Source: Stellaceae bacterium (lineage in GTDB: Bacteria; Pseudomonadota; Alphaproteobacteria; ATCC43930; CGMCC-115725). Taken from it: DNA of 64,000 nucleotides. The DNA lies in contig DATFCQ010000051.1 in the NCBI GenBank assembly GCA_035252905.1, forward strand, positions 317-64,316. The letters run 5' to 3'. Of this stretch, positions 47,850 through 54,716 are shown piece by piece (positions within the stretch are counted from its first letter, which is position 1; the number at the start of each line of letters is the position of its first letter). The translations under genes were made by a program, and so were the position numbers. Below the pieces are notes generated by a model. The model had not been told where the DNA came from. It saw only the letters and a program-made list of their open reading frames with translations, and made no database searches.

Positions 47850-48036
47850 TCCCGCTCTCTCCTCGTCAGAGTCGCACGCGCCCGCCGCCTCCGCCCTGCG
47901 AGCAGAACACGGCTTGCAGGCTGCGGTCAGTATGACAGGGCGATGCTCGGCAAAAGAGAAAAATCTCTGCTCGACTTTGGTCCGACGCTCGCTTCAGTGT
48001 GTATGATTGCCGCCGGCACAGCATGAGGGTGAGCGG

Positions 48037-49080
48037 GTGACGACAGCGAAGCCGCCGATACGCCTCGGCTTCTTCACCCGCCTGCTCGATCTGGCGGATG
48101 CGGCCGAGCGCTACCGCCTCGCCGTCGCGCAGATCGTGCACGCCGAGCGCTGCGGCTTCGATTCCGCCTGGGTCGCGCAGCACCATTTTCACGAGGACGA
48201 AGGCGGCCTGCCGGCGCCGTTCGTGTTCCTGTCCCGGGTCGCCGCGCAGACCACGCGGCTCCGCCTGGGGACCGGGATCGTCACCCTGCCGCTGGAATTG
48301 CCGATCCGGGTGGCGGAGGACGCCGCGGTGCTCGACCTGATGTGCGGCGGCCGCCTGGAGGTCGGGATCGGGCCCGGCGGCAATCTCTCGGCGTACACGG
48401 CGTTCGGCCTCGACAGCGCCGAGCGCACGGCGCTGTTGATCCGGCATCATCGCGTCTTGTGCGATGCCTGGGCGGGGCGGCCGTTGCCCGGCGGCGCCCG
48501 CCTGTATCCGGCCAATCCCGGCCTCCTGGACCGCGTCTGGCAGGCCACCTTTACCGTCGAAGGCGCCCGGCGGGCCGGTGCGGCGGGCGACGGTCTGATG
48601 CTGTCGCGCACGCAGCCCCGGCCGGCGGGAGCGCCCCACCTGTCGCTGCCCGACATCCAGCATCCGATGATCGACGCCTATCTGGAGGCATTGCCGCAGG
48701 GCCGCGCGCCGCGCATCCTCGCCTCGCGCACGGTCTTCGTCGCCGACGACCGCAAGGAGGCGCTGCTTCTGGCGGAAATCGGCCTGAAGCGGCAGCGGAC
48801 GCGGTACACCGCGATCGGCCGCACGGTCTTTGTCGAGGGCCTATCGGTGCACGACCAGATCGCCGCGATGGATATTCATATCGGCAATCCGGACGACGTG
48901 ATCGCCTCGTTGCGGGCCGACAGCATACTGGCCCGCGCCACCGACCTGACCGTTCAGGCGCATTCGATCGATCCGCCGCATCCCTTGATCCTGCGGTCGA
49001 TCGAACTGGTCGCCGGCGTGGTGGCGCCGGCATTGGGCTGGATTCCGAGCGGCGGAGCGGCCGCGCGGCACATTGCCTGA
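48037..49080 (+). CDS. LLM-class (luciferase-like) flavin-dependent oxidoreductase
   Basis: Within ORF 48007..49080; GTG 48037. IRLGFFTRLL...CGFDSAWVAQHHFHEDEGGLPAPFVFLS...LRLGTGIVTLPLE. Confidence 0.85.
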   Translation: MTTAKPPIRLGFFTRLLDLADAAERYRLAVAQIVHAERCGFDSAWVAQHHFHEDEGGLPAPFVFLSRVAAQTTRLRLGTGIVTLPLELPIRVAEDAAVLDLMCGGRLEVGIGPGGNLSAYTAFGLDSAERTALLIRHHRVLCDAWAGRPLPGGARLYPANPGLLDRVWQATFTVEGARRAGAAGDGLMLSRTQPRPAGAPHLSLPDIQHPMIDAYLEALPQGRAPRILASRTVFVADDRKEALLLAEIGLKRQRTRYTAIGRTVFVEGLSVHDQIAAMDIHIGNPDDVIASLRADSILARATDLTVQAHSIDPPHPLILRSIELVAGVVAPALGWIPSGGAAARHIA

Positions 49081-49109: not shown

Positions 49110-49703
49110 ATGGACACGGACGTCATTGACGCGCTGGCCGGGATCAAGCCCGGCTCCGCATTGGACGCACTCCGCAACCGACGGCCGGATGCACGCGCGC
49201 AGGCGCAGGCCAGCTATCGCGCGCTGTTTGCGCCGGACGTTGCCGGCGGGGTCACCGCAACCGAGCGTTTCGCGGTGGCCGCCTTCGTCAGCGGTCTGCA
49301 TGGCGACGCGGAGACCGCTTCGTTCTACGCCGCCGGCCTCACCGCCGGCGGGGCATCGGCGGAATTGCGCGGCGCGATCGACGCGGCGATCGCGGCCGCC
49401 AAGGGGCACGGCCCCTATGGCGGCTATCCCGCCGGCCCGCTGAACCGCGAGGACGCCGCCGGACCGACCTATCGTGTCGCGGCGGAAACCCGCCGGGCGC
49501 TGGGATCGCGTCTCGCCGCCGCGTTCGCGCACATGCATCTGCTGGTGTTCCATCCGCGCGACGCCGCGCCGGAGGCGCTGCAGGCCTTATTGGATGCCGG
49601 CTGGTCGACGACCGACATCGTGATGTTGTCGCAGATCGCCGCCTTTCTGTCGTTTCAGATCCGGGTGGTCGCCGGCCTGCGCGCCCTGGCGGGCGCCGCC
49701 TGA
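49110..49703 (+). CDS. CMD (carboxymuconolactone-decarboxylase/AhpD-fold) domain protein without CxxC
   Basis: Within ORF 48342..49703; ATG 49110. MDTDVIDALAGIKPGSALDALRNRRPDA...DIVMLSQIAAFLSFQIRVV. I recall this family clustering with an LLM and an AhpD-like gene (Avi_7170-type, recollection). Confidence 0.78.
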   Translation: MDTDVIDALAGIKPGSALDALRNRRPDARAQAQASYRALFAPDVAGGVTATERFAVAAFVSGLHGDAETASFYAAGLTAGGASAELRGAIDAAIAAAKGHGPYGGYPAGPLNREDAAGPTYRVAAETRRALGSRLAAAFAHMHLLVFHPRDAAPEALQALLDAGWSTTDIVMLSQIAAFLSFQIRVVAGLRALAGAA

Positions 49704-49718
49704 CACACGAGGTCAACC

Positions 49719-50326
49719 ATGCCCGACACGATCCTTGAACCGCCGCCGCACACGGTTCCCGCCGTCTTCACCCGGGCGCTGCTCGATTGGCTGCCTTGGC
49801 TCGAACCGCTGGCGGTCGAGGCCCTGACCGAACGGCATAGGGCCGGCCTGGTGGACGCCGCGCGGGTCAAATCGCCGTATTTCCGGCTGCTGGCGCGCGA
49901 CCCCGACGCATTGCGGGCGCGCACGCTGACCGACAAGGACATCTTCTACAATACCGATGCCGGCCTGCCGCGGGCCGAACGCGAACTGGCCGCCGCCGCG
50001 ACATCGCGGTTCAACGGCTGCATCTACTGCGCATCGGTGCATGCGCGGTTCTCGGCGACCTATTCGAAGCGCGAGGACGACGTGCAGCGGCTGTTGGACG
50101 ACGGCATCGGCGCCGTCTCGGCGAGCGCTGGAATGCCATCGTCGCTGCCGCGGCGGCGCTCAGCACGACGCCGATCGCGTTCGGACCGCAGCATGTGGAG
50201 CGGCTGCGTCGCGCCGGGCTGGACGATCTGGCGATCGCCGACGTGATCCATGCCGCGGCCTTCTTCAACTGGGCCAACCGGCTGATGCTGTCGCTCGGCG
50301 AGCCGGCCATGGCAGCCGGAACCTAG
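49719..50326 (+). pseudogene. AhpD-like alkylhydroperoxidase-domain protein, disrupted by a -1 frameshift near 50112-50119
   Basis: ORF 49719..50246 is family-like up to ...NGCIYCASVHARF...LLDDGIGA and then becomes Arg/Ser-rich junk. The +2 frame from ~50111 reads RRLGERWNAIVAAAAALSTTPIAFGPQHVERLRRAGLDDLAIADVIHAAAFFNWANRLMLSLGEPAMAAGT*, a typical AhpD-fold C-terminus ending at TAG 50324-50326. The total span is 608 nt, one base short of in-frame. Confidence 0.75.
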
Positions 50327-50492
50327 CGCAAATTGCGCATCGGTTTGCAGGAGGTCTTCCTGCCGAGGGCAATTCGGCCCAGCGCCCGGGCTGCCGGCGA
50401 CACCCGGCTCCAAAGCCTCCCGGAATCGGCTGGCGGTTCGGAGGGAGGGCACGATAGGCTTGCCGAGACCTCGCTATACGGAGGAGGCCGAT

Positions 50493-50852
50493 ATGAGGGT
50501 CTTGATCAAGAGCGCGTGGGGCTCCGACGAATCGACAAAGGCTGCCTTTGCCTTTCTTCACGCCAACGCCTTCGCCGAGGCCGGGCACGAGGTCCAGATT
50601 TTCCTGCTCGGCGAGGCCGTAAACCTGATCAAAACGGAGTTGATGAACGCCGTAACGCCGGTCGGGTGGCCGCCTCTGTCCGAGATCATGTCAAAAACGA
50701 TAGGACATGGGATTCCGATCAACGTCTGAACCGCGTGCTCACGGGCCCGTGCGGTCCGCGACAGCGATCTCGAAGGCAAAAATGCCCGATTTGTGACTCC
50801 TCCGGATCTGGTCGCTCTGGTCGAATGGGCCGACAAGGTTCTGAGCGAGTGA
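50493..50852 (+). CDS. DsrE/TusD-family sulfur-relay protein with in-frame TGA at codon 79 (candidate selenocysteine, or nonsense pseudogene)
   Basis: ORF 50460..50729 with ATG 50493 (GAGGAGG 5 nt upstream). After TGA 50727-50729 the same frame continues for 40 codons (TACSRARAVRDSDLEGKNARFVTPPDLVALVEWADKVLSE) to TGA 50850-50852. The total of 119 residues matches the family's size. Confidence 0.7.
50730..50755 (+). promoter_or_regulatory. hairpin immediately 3' of the in-frame UGA (possible SECIS-like element)
   Basis: ACCGCGUG-CUCACGGGCC-CGUGCGGU: 8 bp including 2 G-U pairs, with a 10-nt loop containing GGG. It is closer to the UGA than a canonical bacterial SECIS apical loop, so it is only a candidate. 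Confidence 0.3.
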
Positions 50853-50878
50853 TTGTGTTCTCAGTGTATAACAATTTC

Positions 50879-52141
50879 TCAGATCACGCGATTTTCTGCC
50901 AGAACCGAAAGCGCGCCGCGAGACAACCCCATTTCGTCGCAGAAGATTTCCGCGTTGTGCTCGCCGATCAGCGGGGCCCGTCTGGAGATCCGCCAGGGAG
51001 AGCCGTTATAGAGGGCGGCCTCGCCCGGATAGAGGAAGCTGCGGCCGAGTTCCGGATGTTCCACCTCTTTCCAGAAGCCGCGGTCATGCAGATGGGGGTC
51101 GTCGAGGAGGGCTTCCGGGGCGCGCACCGCCCCCCAGGTGAAGCCGCGTTTCTGGGCCGCGTGATAAACCTCCTCGGCCGGCAGACTGGCAATGAAATTG
51201 GCGACGAGATCGTCGATGATATGGGACGCGCTCGCCGCAATGACCGCCGGGTCCCGGTATTTGGGGTCCTTGAGATCGCCGGCCATGCCGTAATTGTCGA
51301 GCAGATCCGCCAGTTCGCCGACATAGTTCGGGGTCAGCCGGCCGGCCACCAGCGCCGTGACGTAGGTGCCGTCACTGGCGCGGAACTGGGTGCGAGGCGT
51401 CGGACCGGCGGCATGATGGCGACCGGTCTGCCGTCGCAATACCTCTCCGCGGTACAGGTAATTGGCGATCGCCGCCTCGGTCGTCAGGGCGCAAGCCTCG
51501 TGGATCGAGGCGTCGATGGATTGCCCTTGCCCGGAAACCGTCCGATGGACCAAAGCGGCCATGATCGCGATATAGGCGAAGTGACAGCCCATGTGCCAGG
51601 CGTTGCCGCCGCCCGGAGCAATCGGCGGCGCATTCGGCGCGTCCGCCTCGTCATAGCCGCAGGACGCCATCTGCCCGCCTGCCGCCATGTGGAGCAGGTC
51701 GCTGGAGAGGTAGTCCCGCCAGGGGCCGGTCTGGCCGAACGGGGTCAGAGAGCACAGGATCAGCCGCGGGTTTTGCTTGCGGAGAGAGTCGTAATCGAGC
51801 CCCAGCGAGGCCAGGAAGCCCGGTCGGAAGGTTTCCAGAATGATGTCCGCCGTCGCCGCCAGACGCTGGAAAAGCCCTATTCCGTCCGCAGTTTCCAGAT
51901 TGAGGGTGATGCCCCGTTTGGAGGTATTGTAGTACCAGAACGACAGGCTGCGCTCCGGGTGCGGGATATCGTCGAGAAAGGGCCCGATACGGCGGCTGGG
52001 CTCGCCGCCGGGGGGTTCGATCTTGACGATTTCGGCTCCGAGATCGCCGAGAAGCTTGCCGCAGAACTGGCCGGTTTCGTCGGCAAGTTCCAGGACGCGG
52101 AGGCCGGCGAGCGGGCCGGGCCGGGTTTCGGGGTCGGTCAC
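50879..52141 (-). CDS. family III CoA-transferase (type 'A', resembles N-half of the fused gene)
   Basis: Within ORF 50879..52216. GTG 52141 overlaps the upstream stop (GTGA). LAGLRVLELADETGQFCGKLLGDLGAEIVKIEPPGG. Confidence 0.88.
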   Translation of the reverse strand: MTDPETRPGPLAGLRVLELADETGQFCGKLLGDLGAEIVKIEPPGGEPSRRIGPFLDDIPHPERSLSFWYYNTSKRGITLNLETADGIGLFQRLAATADIILETFRPGFLASLGLDYDSLRKQNPRLILCSLTPFGQTGPWRDYLSSDLLHMAAGGQMASCGYDEADAPNAPPIAPGGGNAWHMGCHFAYIAIMAALVHRTVSGQGQSIDASIHEACALTTEAAIANYLYRGEVLRRQTGRHHAAGPTPRTQFRASDGTYVTALVAGRLTPNYVGELADLLDNYGMAGDLKDPKYRDPAVIAASASHIIDDLVANFIASLPAEEVYHAAQKRGFTWGAVRAPEALLDDPHLHDRGFWKEVEHPELGRSFLYPGEAALYNGSPWRISRRAPLIGEHNAEIFCDEMGLSRGALSVLAENRVI

Positions 52142-53463
52142 CGGAGCATCTCGTCCAGGTAAGGAAAGCGCGCCCGCTCCCGCGGCCAGAATGTGCCGTC
52201 GGCGAACCCGGCGCACAGGTCTTCATGGCTGCAGCCCAACAAGCCCTCGACGATCTCCCTTGTGTGCTGCCCGATCAGCGGGCTCGGCAAATGATTGAAC
52301 GCCGGGGTTTCGGACAGTTTGAACGGGGCATTCTGTACCTTGTGCTCTCCGAGCGCCGGGTGCTCCATCGCCCGATACATCTCGCGGTGGCGCAATTGCG
52401 GGTCGTGCTCGACCCGGTCTTCGGCGCTTTGCACCGGAAGGGCGCGAACGCCGGCAGCCTGGCAGCGCTCGGTCAATTCGTACTTCCCCAATGTCGTGCT
52501 CCACATTTCGATCGACTCGTCCAACTCCTCCTGGTGCTGCAGGCGGGCTGCGATCGTGGCGAATTTCGGCGAGGCGGCCCAGGTCGGGGCGCCCATCACC
52601 TGCACCAGCCGTCGCCATTCCTCGTCGCAACAGCAGACGATCACGCACCAATCGTTGTACCCGCCGGGATAGGTGCGATAGGCATTGTGGGGTGCGACCG
52701 TCGGCCCGCGGTAATTGTTGACCAGCGGCGTACCGGGCCAATGCGCGCGGTTGCCGGGAGGATAGCCGGCGCGGCGCGTTCCCCGCCCGTTGACCGTGAA
52801 GTCCAGCAGCGCCGGGCCGTTGAGCGGAACGCTCGCCACCATCTGGGACAGGTCGATGTGCTGGCCCTGCCCCGTCCTGTTGCGATGGTAAAGGCCGGTG
52901 AGGGCGCACATCGCCCCGTACATGCCGCCGGTATCGTCCATATACGACCAGCCCCAACCGGCCGGCGGTTTGTCCGGCAGGCCGGAGATGGAGGTCAGTC
53001 CCGAGACCGCCTGGGCGACGGGACCGAAGGTCGTGTAAGGGTGATGCCGGCCGGTATGACCGTAGCCCGACATCGACACATAGACGATATCGGGTTTGAT
53101 CCGGCGCAGCTCCTCGTAGCCGAGGCCCCAGTTCCGCAGCACCCGCGAGCTGAAATTCTCGATCACGAGGTCGGAGACGGCGATCAGCCGCCTGGCGATC
53201 TCCAGGCCCTTGGCGCTGCGCACGTTCAGGGTGAGGCTCTTCTTGTTGACGTTGGTGTCATTGAAGTTTCCCGAAGTGTTCAGATTGACCTCGAGATGCT
53301 GCGGGGTGGTGGTGCTGGGCAATCTGCCGCGCTCGTTCTCCGGCCACTCGATCTTGATGATCTCGGCTCCGAGGGCGCCGAGCCAGCGCGTCGCCCACGG
53401 CCCGGCCCGCACCCAGCTGAAATCCACCACGCGAATGTTTTCGAGGGCTCGCGGTCGAGACAT
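52138..53463 (-). CDS. family III CoA-transferase (type 'B', resembles C-half of the fused gene)
   Basis: Within ORF 52138..53877. ATG 53463 has GGAGGA upstream. LENIRVVDFSWVRAGPWATRWLGALGAEIIKIEWPE. Confidence 0.9.
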   Translation of the reverse strand: MSRPRALENIRVVDFSWVRAGPWATRWLGALGAEIIKIEWPENERGRLPSTTTPQHLEVNLNTSGNFNDTNVNKKSLTLNVRSAKGLEIARRLIAVSDLVIENFSSRVLRNWGLGYEELRRIKPDIVYVSMSGYGHTGRHHPYTTFGPVAQAVSGLTSISGLPDKPPAGWGWSYMDDTGGMYGAMCALTGLYHRNRTGQGQHIDLSQMVASVPLNGPALLDFTVNGRGTRRAGYPPGNRAHWPGTPLVNNYRGPTVAPHNAYRTYPGGYNDWCVIVCCCDEEWRRLVQVMGAPTWAASPKFATIAARLQHQEELDESIEMWSTTLGKYELTERCQAAGVRALPVQSAEDRVEHDPQLRHREMYRAMEHPALGEHKVQNAPFKLSETPAFNHLPSPLIGQHTREIVEGLLGCSHEDLCAGFADGTFWPRERARFPYLDEMLR

Positions 53464-53495
53464 CGCATCGTCCTCCGACCGGGATCGGGCCTCTG

Positions 53496-54716
53496 TCACC
53501 GCCGCTCCCCCGGCGATGCGGCCGTCACCCCGGCTTCTGCGAGGCGGGCGATCTCCTCTGCGGCGAACCCGGCCTCGCTCAGCACTTCGGCAGTGTGTTC
53601 GCCGATGCGCGGCGGCTGCCGGCGAAGGCCCGGCCTCTGCCGGTCGCCGCCGAACTCGACCGGCAAGGCCGGCAATCCCGCGATCCTGCCGTCCTCGCCG
53701 CCAAAGCGGGAGATGAACACGTCGACCAGTCCGCCGGTCGCCAACAGATGCGGGTCGTCGAACAGATCGCCCGGCTGCCCGACCGGCGCCCAGGACACGT
53801 TCGCCCGCTCGCAGCGGCGCGCGACCTCGTCCTGCGGCAGTGTCGCCAACGCCTCCTGCAGGGCCGGGATCAGCCACGCCCGCTCAGCCAGTCGCATGAC
53901 ATTGGTGGCGAGCCGCGGATCGGCCGCCAGGTCCTGCAGGCCGAACTCCTCGACAAAGCGGGCCCATTGCTGATCGCTGGTGACGCCGATGAACAACTGG
54001 CCGCCGCCCGCGGTCCGGAACACCTCATAAACCGCCCAGGCGCCGCGCCGCGTCGGCATCGGCCGCGCGTCGAGACCGGTGGCGGCCATGCCGGCCATAT
54101 GGGTGCTCATCAGGAAGGCGGCGCTCTCGAACAGCGCGCTCGATACGCGCTGACCCGTGCCGGTGATCTCGCGCTCGCGCAAGGCGGCCTCCACCGCGAT
54201 GACGCCGAACAGGGCGCCCATGATGTCGATGACCGAAGCGCCGGCGCGGAGCGGCTGCCCGGGCGGCCCGGTCATGAAGGCGAGACCGGTGTGGAACTGC
54301 ACGACTTCGTCGAGCGCCGGGCGGTGCTCGTAGGGACCAGCGAGATAGCCTTTCAGCGCGAGATAAACGAGGCGCGGATTGAGCGGCGCCAATTGCTCGT
54401 AGCCGCAGCCGTTCCGCTCCATCGTGCCGGGCCCGAAATTCTCCAGCACGACATCGACGGTCGGGACCAGGCGGTGGATCACCGCCTGGCCTTCCCGGCG
54501 TTTCAGATCGACCGCGAGGCTGCGCTTGTTGCGGTTGAAGGCCGCAAAGAAGCCGGCGCCGAAACCGCCCAGTCGGCGGGTATGGTCGCCGCCCGGCGCC
54601 AACTCGACCTTGACCACGTCGGCGCCAAGCTCGGCGAATACCAGCCCGGCCGTCGGTCCCATGACCGTATGGCTGAACTCCAGGACCCTGATGCCGGCCA
54701 GCGGCGTTGCCGGCAT
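53496..54716 (-). CDS. family III CoA-transferase (CaiB/BaiF)
   Basis: 406-aa ORF with LAGIRVLEFSHTVMGPTAGLVFAELGADVVKVE. The start overlaps the upstream stop by 1 nt (TGATG). Confidence 0.9.
   Translation of the reverse strand: MPATPLAGIRVLEFSHTVMGPTAGLVFAELGADVVKVELAPGGDHTRRLGGFGAGFFAAFNRNKRSLAVDLKRREGQAVIHRLVPTVDVVLENFGPGTMERNGCGYEQLAPLNPRLVYLALKGYLAGPYEHRPALDEVVQFHTGLAFMTGPPGQPLRAGASVIDIMGALFGVIAVEAALREREITGTGQRVSSALFESAAFLMSTHMAGMAATGLDARPMPTRRGAWAVYEVFRTAGGGQLFIGVTSDQQWARFVEEFGLQDLAADPRLATNVMRLAERAWLIPALQEALATLPQDEVARRCERANVSWAPVGQPGDLFDDPHLLATGGLVDVFISRFGGEDGRIAGLPALPVEFGGDRQRPGLRRQPPRIGEHTAEVLSEAGFAAEEIARLAEAGVTAASPGERR

Follow-up and report, generated by a model that had tools for sequence, protein, structure and literature searches.

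The closest described relatives of the gene considered here are the DsrE-like selenoproteins, a family known from computation only. The description "DsrE-like protein, PF02635, UxxC" was given to two Sargasso Sea sequences with a predicted selenocysteine (Sec, U) insertion sequence, or SECIS (Zhang et al. 2005, PMC1088965, Tables 1, 4). A DsrE-like selenoprotein was then reported in Desulfovibrio vulgaris in a survey that credited the Alphaproteobacteria with one selenoprotein family only (Zhang et al. 2006, PMC1794560), and a 2026 review lists the DsrE-like UxxC family and credits its reference 12 (PMC13188914). We analysed a stretch of 64,000 nucleotides of a Stellaceae bacterium (contig DATFCQ010000051.1, hereafter the window), in which a gene at positions 50493..50852 of the forward strand shares the traits of this family: it belongs to PF02635, has a UxxC motif, pairs Sec with Cys among its homologues, and carries right after a UGA codon a SECIS-like hairpin with a G in its small apical loop. 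Reference 12 of the review is probably Kryukov & Gladyshev 2004. A preliminary description of this DNA had mentioned that DsrE-like proteins figure in selenoproteome surveys, and they are indeed listed in all three publications (PMC1088965, PMC1794560, PMC13188914). The window gene is likened to the published examples (the D. vulgaris protein, WP_014524487.1, AACY01486889) by family and motif description only. Unlike the D. vulgaris protein and the two Sargasso Sea reads, the present clade is leaderless and widespread in soil-type metagenome-assembled genomes (MAGs) of Stellaceae, Methylomirabilota, Nitrospinota, Binatia and others. The window gene is an additional, mis-annotated member of an already known kind of selenoprotein, and no new family.

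We hold with high confidence that positions 50493 to 50852 encode a cytoplasmic DsrE/TusD-fold protein of 119 residues that has no leader and in which UGA-79 is recoded to Sec through a SECIS hairpin. The in-frame TGA of this small protein, a DsrE-fold member of redox or sulfur-handling type, is almost certainly a true Sec codon. Unless stated otherwise, all features are on the forward strand. From the ATG at 50493 the frame runs through 78 sense codons, a TGA at 50727..50729 (codon 79, read as Sec, the first position of the UxxC motif U79-T-A-C82), 40 further sense codons translated as TACSRARAVRDSDLEGKNARFVTPPDLVALVEWADKVLSE, and a second TGA at 50850..50852. The preliminary description had given this frame with exact coordinates and translation. 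The second TGA is the true stop, has no SECIS 3' of it, and lies at an end position common to all homologues: the C-terminus ...EWADKVLSE* coincides with the C-termini encoded by all 81 homologous loci that we compared. The database record of the gene, HJU15505.1, is a 78-residue "hypothetical protein", and the same cut at the TGA occurs in about 320 database sequences (eight sister clusters sampled). The openness of the frame beyond the TGA and its GC content at third codon positions (GC3) had been put forward as evidence that the tail is translated. Both are within chance expectation and we reject them, because they are uninformative in a GC-rich window: at 66% GC, 39% of all stop-to-stop intervals reach at least 40 codons, and GC3 is 78% before the TGA, 65% after it and 72% in one of the two off-frames.

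The evidence that carries the Sec assignment comes from homologues. Among 5.8 billion proteins searched, 5747 matched, and we compared the DNA of 81 loci, namely the contig encoding the match P0001 (locus L001) and 80 loci from GTDB representative genomes. An in-frame stop occupies the codon-79 column in 59 of the 81, with the downstream frame open and conserved to ...EWADK(V/I)LSE*. Together with the window these loci (L001-L058 and L063) make up the Sec-type set (n=60). The Cys-type set (L059-L062 and L064-L081, n=22) has TGC (17) or TGT (5) at this column, i.e., CxxC versus UxxC. The stop is TGA in all 60 Sec-type sequences, and never TAA or TAG. This pairing of 60 TGA with 22 TGC or TGT codons is the Sec/Cys signature that the preliminary description had proposed. 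The record titles of the related loci name at least eight phyla; these titles are our taxon labels, and MAG binning errors are possible for single records. By title, the TGA-type genes occur in Xanthobacteraceae, Stellaceae, other Alphaproteobacteria, the isolate Rhodospirillales bacterium URHD0017, Nitrospinota, Methylomirabilota, Binatia, Ktedonobacterales and Anaerolineales (Chloroflexota), Acidobacteriota, Thermoleophilia, and a Betaproteobacterium.

These data bear directly on the simplest alternative, that the gene is a pseudogene in which a Cys or Trp codon became TGA, be it by a recent nonsense mutation or by an error of sequencing or assembly, leaving a non-functional fragment of 78 residues. 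Such an event would fit the deposited annotation, which ends at residue 78, and TGA is one substitution away from TGC, TGT and TGG. No Sec machinery is seen in the 64-kb window, which would also agree with it. Yet the TGA stands at the same column in 59 other loci from many phyla, which refutes the recent nonsense mutation that the preliminary description had kept as its alternative. None of the 60 Sec-type tails has a frameshift or a further stop. Nor is the tail kept open by a gene on the other strand: there is no conserved opposite-strand gene, and the antisense open reading frames (ORFs) are shadow ORFs.

A further point seemed to favour a mutated Trp codon, since W occupies this column in the closest proteins of the databases. 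In the first protein alignment the four closest matches carried W, F, W and W, and Cys was found there only in a clade of about 60% identity, as the first Cys of C-G-A-C. The contig of P0001 (L001) was flagged as not translating to the query, and its DNA at positions 482-484 is TGA. The W of the databases therefore goes back to metagenome gene callers that applied genetic code 4 to a TGA. A TGG-to-TGA nonsense mutation, as suggested by Trp in the closest homologues, was dropped, as the DNA of such records shows TGA. Trp stands at the Sec position in the 119-residue metagenome calls P0001, P0003, P0004 and P0130. The column is Phe in P0002 and Leu in P0031, which may be real substitutions or translation artefacts. 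Miscalls as Trp could mislead searches for Sec/Cys pairs into reading a Trp column.

The substitution pattern gave the same answer. Across all Sec-type pairs, the ratio of non-synonymous to synonymous differences per site (pN/pS, Nei-Gojobori) was 0.27 for codons 4-78 and 0.31 for codons 80-119; it was 0.28 for codons 91-119, i.e., with the hairpin left out. Between the window and its nearest relatives the region downstream of the TGA had an omega of 0.01-0.05 at a pS of 0.45-0.68. Judged from these ratios, the tail is protein-coding and constrained as strongly as the head. Purifying selection of this kind on the tail excludes a pseudogene, and we regard the fragment explanation as extremely improbable.

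If UGA-79 is read as Sec, the messenger should carry a bacterial SECIS (bSECIS) element just downstream of it. We found a hairpin of this type within the coding sequence at 50732..50766, identified by folding and by conservation at synonymous sites. Its upper stem has 6 bp, with 50742-50747 (CGGGCC) pairing with 50753-50758 (GGUCCG) around an apical loop at 50748-50752 (CGUGC) that has G and then U at its second and third positions. The lower stem is bulged and pairs 50732-50740 with 50760-50766. The upper stem has an energy of -8.4 kcal/mol and the entire hairpin -15.8 kcal/mol, and the loop begins 18 nt from the UGA. The published bSECIS model has a loop of 3-9 nt, a stem of 4-16 bp, a UGA-to-loop distance of 16-37 nt and a minimum free energy of at most -7.5 kcal/mol, with a G in the first two loop positions that is usually followed by G or U (PMC13188914, Fig. 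2). The window hairpin lies within all four limits. The preliminary description was right that a hairpin follows the UGA, but the structure is best placed at 50732-50766 and not at 50730-50755. Its remark that the loop is nearer than in canonical elements does not hold, as 18 nt falls inside the published range.

The hairpin is conserved in TGA-type genes beyond what the protein requires. The string GGGCCCGUG(C/G)GGUCC occurs 16-31 nt past the UGA in nearly all Sec-type sequences and is translated as R-A-R-(A/G)-V, residues for which the Cys-type genes use codons that vary freely. At codons 84-88 the entropy of the third position was 0.12-0.53 bits in Sec-type and 1.31-1.84 bits in Cys-type genes, whereas the means outside codons 84-89 were almost identical (1.27 and 1.29 bits, respectively). 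The conservation at synonymous sites is thus confined to TGA-type genes, which answers the question, raised at the outset, of whether TGA-containing orthologues keep the hairpin. A hairpin at a spacing of 17-19 nt was found in 57 of the 60 Sec-type sequences, and 37 of the 60, versus 3 of the 22 Cys-type sequences, fell within all four published limits with a contiguous upper stem.

Base pairing was also counted on the named structure in the 54 distinct Sec-type sequences, with slid partners and Cys-type sequences as controls. Paired cells amounted to 77.8%, versus 25-61% for the slid partners, and the covariation score was 0.107, a value reached by none of 500 shuffles (0.076 ± 0.009). Three sequences have U-A in place of C-G at pair 21-27, and at pair 16-32 there are 16 sequences with C-G and 10 with A-U. 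The core pairs form in 85-100% of the Sec-type sequences. Of the five core pairs, two are present in just one or two of the 21 Cys-type control sequences (~5-10%). In the Nitrospinota-like clade (L014, L017, L021-L024, L027-L029) we also observed another hairpin, CGCGCG/CGUGCG with the loop GGCC, 12-27 nt past the UGA.

The hairpin is relevant for a second alternative, in which the UGA is recoded independently of a SECIS. Near-cognate tRNAs would read UGA-79 as Trp, Cys or Arg, or UGA would be reassigned (genetic codes 4 or 25), and no selenium would be involved. This alternative accounts for the full-length product, which is clearly selected for, and the gene callers of the Joint Genome Institute (JGI) did choose code 4 on some short contigs. 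However, TGA is the terminator of all six Pfam-confirmed neighbours in the window and of the gene itself, 41 codons past the internal TGA. This excludes a reassigned code and makes the recoding context-dependent. Moreover, the column alternates only with Cys, as in the classical Sec/Cys pair, and the bSECIS-type hairpin is conserved at synonymous sites in the TGA-type genes only. The flanks of the 81 loci contained one gene of the Sec machinery, a tRNA-Sec gene in the TGA-type genome of L028 (CBDCRP010000002.1, 11501-11597, forward strand), 5.1 kb downstream of the Sec-type gene. It was detected by ARAGORN, and as a full-length match to Rfam RF01852 with 75.9 bits (gathering score 47). At least that lineage therefore has selC. 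The genes between the DsrE-like gene and the tRNA-Sec of L028 look unrelated, and the closeness of the two may be coincidental. In the window, ARAGORN and an Rfam scan at gathering thresholds found no tRNA and no Rfam match over the 64 kb. Taken together, we consider recoding without selenium very unlikely, and the recoding part of the mechanism proposed below strongly supported.

The read-through protein belongs to the DsrE family. It matched the Pfam profile PF02635 with 47 bits over profile positions 8-114 of 116 (cutoff 22.7 bits), and the 78-residue product scored 21.5 bits, under the cutoff, so that the tail adds about 25 bits. A phmmer search of the PDB gave a sole match, to E. coli TusD (2D1P_A), which is weak (E = 0.12). 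In this weak alignment codon 79 falls on TusD Cys78 and GHE at residues 31-33 on the GHE of TusD, the register that the preliminary description had given. Its placement of the TGA at the active-site Cys stands as far as the alignment with TusD Cys78 is concerned, but the invariant Cys of the subfamily is another one, C82, the second of the U/CxxC motif. The codon of Cys82 (50736..50738), which is probably the resolving Cys, is invariant in two protein alignments and in all 81 loci, and the TGA column is the variable C/U position. In the AlphaFold2 model of P0006, a leaderless Cys-type homologue, the mean confidence (pLDDT) was 91.2, strand 75-79 ends with residue 79, and the first turn of helix 80-86 contains C82. 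Foldseek matched this model to YchN (1JX7), the Sulfolobus DsrE/DsrF-like proteins 3MC3 and SSO1126 (2QS7), and Allochromatium vinosum DsrE (2HY5_A), at 12-19% identity and with TM-scores normalised to the query of 0.69-0.77 (3MC3 0.77, 2HY5_A 0.71).

The fold is thus that of DsrE/TusD and the nucleophile is at the canonical place, yet the protein is no orthologue of TusD or DsrE. It shares with E. coli TusD (YheN, 2D1P) and with DsrE of the A. vinosum DsrEFH complex (2HY5) the alpha/beta fold, the Cys78 column and the GHE motif. It differs from them by an identity of 12-19%, by equivalog scores far below the cutoffs, and by the lack of TusBC or DsrFH genes near the window gene. The TusD equivalog TIGR03012, scored on a homologue, gave 12 bits versus a cutoff of 89, and the subfamily is without an NCBIfam model of its own; DsrE2 (NF047629) matched best, with 17 bits versus a cutoff of 210. 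TusD and DsrE also lack the extra invariant Cys at +3 (CxxC/UxxC) of the window family, a trait that suggests a redox cycle of the dithiol type and not a pure persulfide relay. YchN, 3MC3 and 2QS7 are the best structural matches and are likewise single-domain, stand-alone proteins of about 120 residues, but they are only 12-19% identical and include no selenoprotein and no protein of proven activity. The JGI label for homologues is "predicted peroxiredoxin". The UxxC/CxxC thiol-disulfide oxidoreductase selenoproteins (thioredoxin-, glutaredoxin-, Prx- and DsbA-like) resemble the window protein in having a nucleophilic Sec at a helix N-terminus and a resolving Cys at +3, and show the same interchange of Sec and Cys between lineages (PMC1088965, Table 4). 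They have the thioredoxin fold, unlike the DsrE-type fold found here.

These comparisons suggest how the protein may be made and what it might do. The hairpin in the ~40 nt past UGA-79 would recruit SelB carrying Sec-tRNA(Sec) to a ribosome positioned on the UGA, Sec would be inserted at residue 79 in the Stellaceae bacterium, and translation would run on to the real stop at 50850. Sec79 would lie at the end of a beta-strand and at the N-terminus of a helix, in the place of the persulfide-accepting Cys78 of TusD and DsrE, with Cys82 one helical turn further to complete the UxxC motif. By analogy, its selenolate may then attack an oxidised sulfur species. The likeliest substrate would be a persulfide or polysulfide, because the position is equivalent to that of TusD and DsrE, and otherwise a disulfide or a peroxide. 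Resolution of the adduct by Cys82 would leave an intramolecular selenenylsulfide for reduction by a thiol system of the cell. The protein would accordingly be a Sec-boosted oxidoreductase or carrier for thiols or sulfane sulfur.

A true selenoprotein might instead act in selenium metabolism, as a carrier or detoxifier, and not in sulfur or redox chemistry. The model for such a role is YedF, which is genomically linked to SelD and has a DsrE-like domain with CGxC (PMC5322559); the Cys-type relatives of the window protein also read C-G-A-C, and one copy of the gene lies 5 kb from a tRNA-Sec. The window family has no SirA-like domain, though, and showed no linkage to selD, yedE or yedF in the 81 loci. 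The proximity to tRNA-Sec concerns just one of 59 loci, L028, where the intervening genes are unrelated. We therefore find a role in selenium metabolism improbable, if less so than the two preceding alternatives, and prefer the sulfur or redox function.

The Sec and Cys forms differ in their N-termini. All 60 Sec-type genes are leaderless, with the ATG at the start of the conserved core or one codon before it, and all 22 Cys-type genes encode a leader of 21-31 residues resembling those of the twin-arginine translocation (Tat) pathway (MIRRSFLK or MIRKxFL). Leaderless Cys forms do exist outside the sampled loci (P0005, P0006, P0051), so that the choice of Sec or Cys appears to track the predicted compartment within this sample only. 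The window gene is preceded by a Shine-Dalgarno sequence, GGAGGAGG (50477..50484), read from the sequence and ending 8 nt 5' of the ATG; in most Sec-type loci the ATG is at the same codon and likewise has a GGAG-type motif upstream.

The gene itself has a GC content of 0.57-0.61, versus 0.65-0.74 in its flanks (region 50400-51000), and the proteins of Alphaproteobacteria, Nitrospinota and unclassified MAGs are 77-87% identical. The low GC and the identity across groups together suggest that the gene has spread horizontally. One might go further and envisage a distinct, horizontally mobile clade of cytoplasmic, Sec-dependent DsrE-fold proteins, widely distributed over many phyla of soil and sediment bacteria, whose exported relatives with a Tat leader use Cys, whose choice of Sec or Cys follows the compartment, and which have an unrecognised activity on reactive sulfur or selenium species. 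We regard this wider scenario as speculative and rather doubtful.

The window gene appears to be monocistronic. Upstream of it, on the same strand, lie a luciferase-like monooxygenase (48007-49080), a CMD-type gene without a Pfam match (49110-49703) and a CMD/AhpD-like gene with CxxC in NGCIYCASVH (49719-50246). Sec/Cys pairs are known in the CMD and AhpD-like families too, and the copy in the window is the Cys form. Downstream, on the reverse strand and convergent with the DsrE-like gene, lie three consecutive paralogues of CoA-transferase III (50879-54716), the first and third assigned by Pfam (PF02515) and the middle one by paralogy only. None of these neighbours is syntenic with the gene in the 81 loci. 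When the neighbours within 4 kb on either side in these loci were clustered de novo, nothing emerged but antisense shadow ORFs and families that occur in at most eight loci. Partner genes of the TusB/C or DsrF/H type were found neither among the window neighbours nor as recurrent neighbours in the 81 loci.

Several results weigh against the recoding of UGA-79 to Sec and the function proposed for the protein. As regards the machinery, selA, selB, selC and selD are all absent from the 64-kb window, the only stretch of this MAG that was examined, and tblastn with E. coli SelA, SelB and SelD gave no match at E ≤ 1e-3 in the window and the 81 loci. As regards the hairpin, 23 of the 60 Sec-type sequences miss the -7.5 kcal/mol limit when the contiguous upper stem alone is counted. 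RNAalifold, run on the 54 Sec-type sequences, did not return the hairpin as consensus and gave a weak, unrelated 4-bp helix instead. The alternative hairpin of the Nitrospinota-like clade competes with the SECIS stem in minimum-free-energy folds. Compensatory changes are few, perhaps one or two events, because the core stem is almost invariant. The single-sequence fold of 50727-50790 did not differ significantly from shuffled sequences (z = -1.14); the support for the hairpin comes from the comparative data. As regards function, the structural model is that of a Cys-type homologue at 65% identity to the window protein, and the lack of a recurrent neighbourhood allows no operon-based functional inference and backs no particular substrate. 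According to the 2026 review, no DsrE-like UxxC member has been biochemically characterised (PMC13188914).

The finding leaves the understanding of recoding unchanged; its practical value is moderate and its surprise low. It corrects an annotation, as HJU15505.1 and several hundred sister entries of 78 residues, which go under the names "hypothetical protein", "DsrE family protein" or "predicted peroxiredoxin", cover just the first two-thirds of a selenoprotein of 119 residues. Without an NCBIfam model the pipelines cannot recognise the family, and some metagenome pipelines mistranslate the Sec codon as Trp. It also adds selenium use to lineages with few catalogued selenoproteins: Stellaceae and other Alphaproteobacteria, Methylomirabilota, Binatia and Nitrospinota. 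With its well-populated Sec/Cys pair (60 versus 22) and a very conserved SECIS, the clade is a good test bed for the function of the DsrE-like UxxC proteins.

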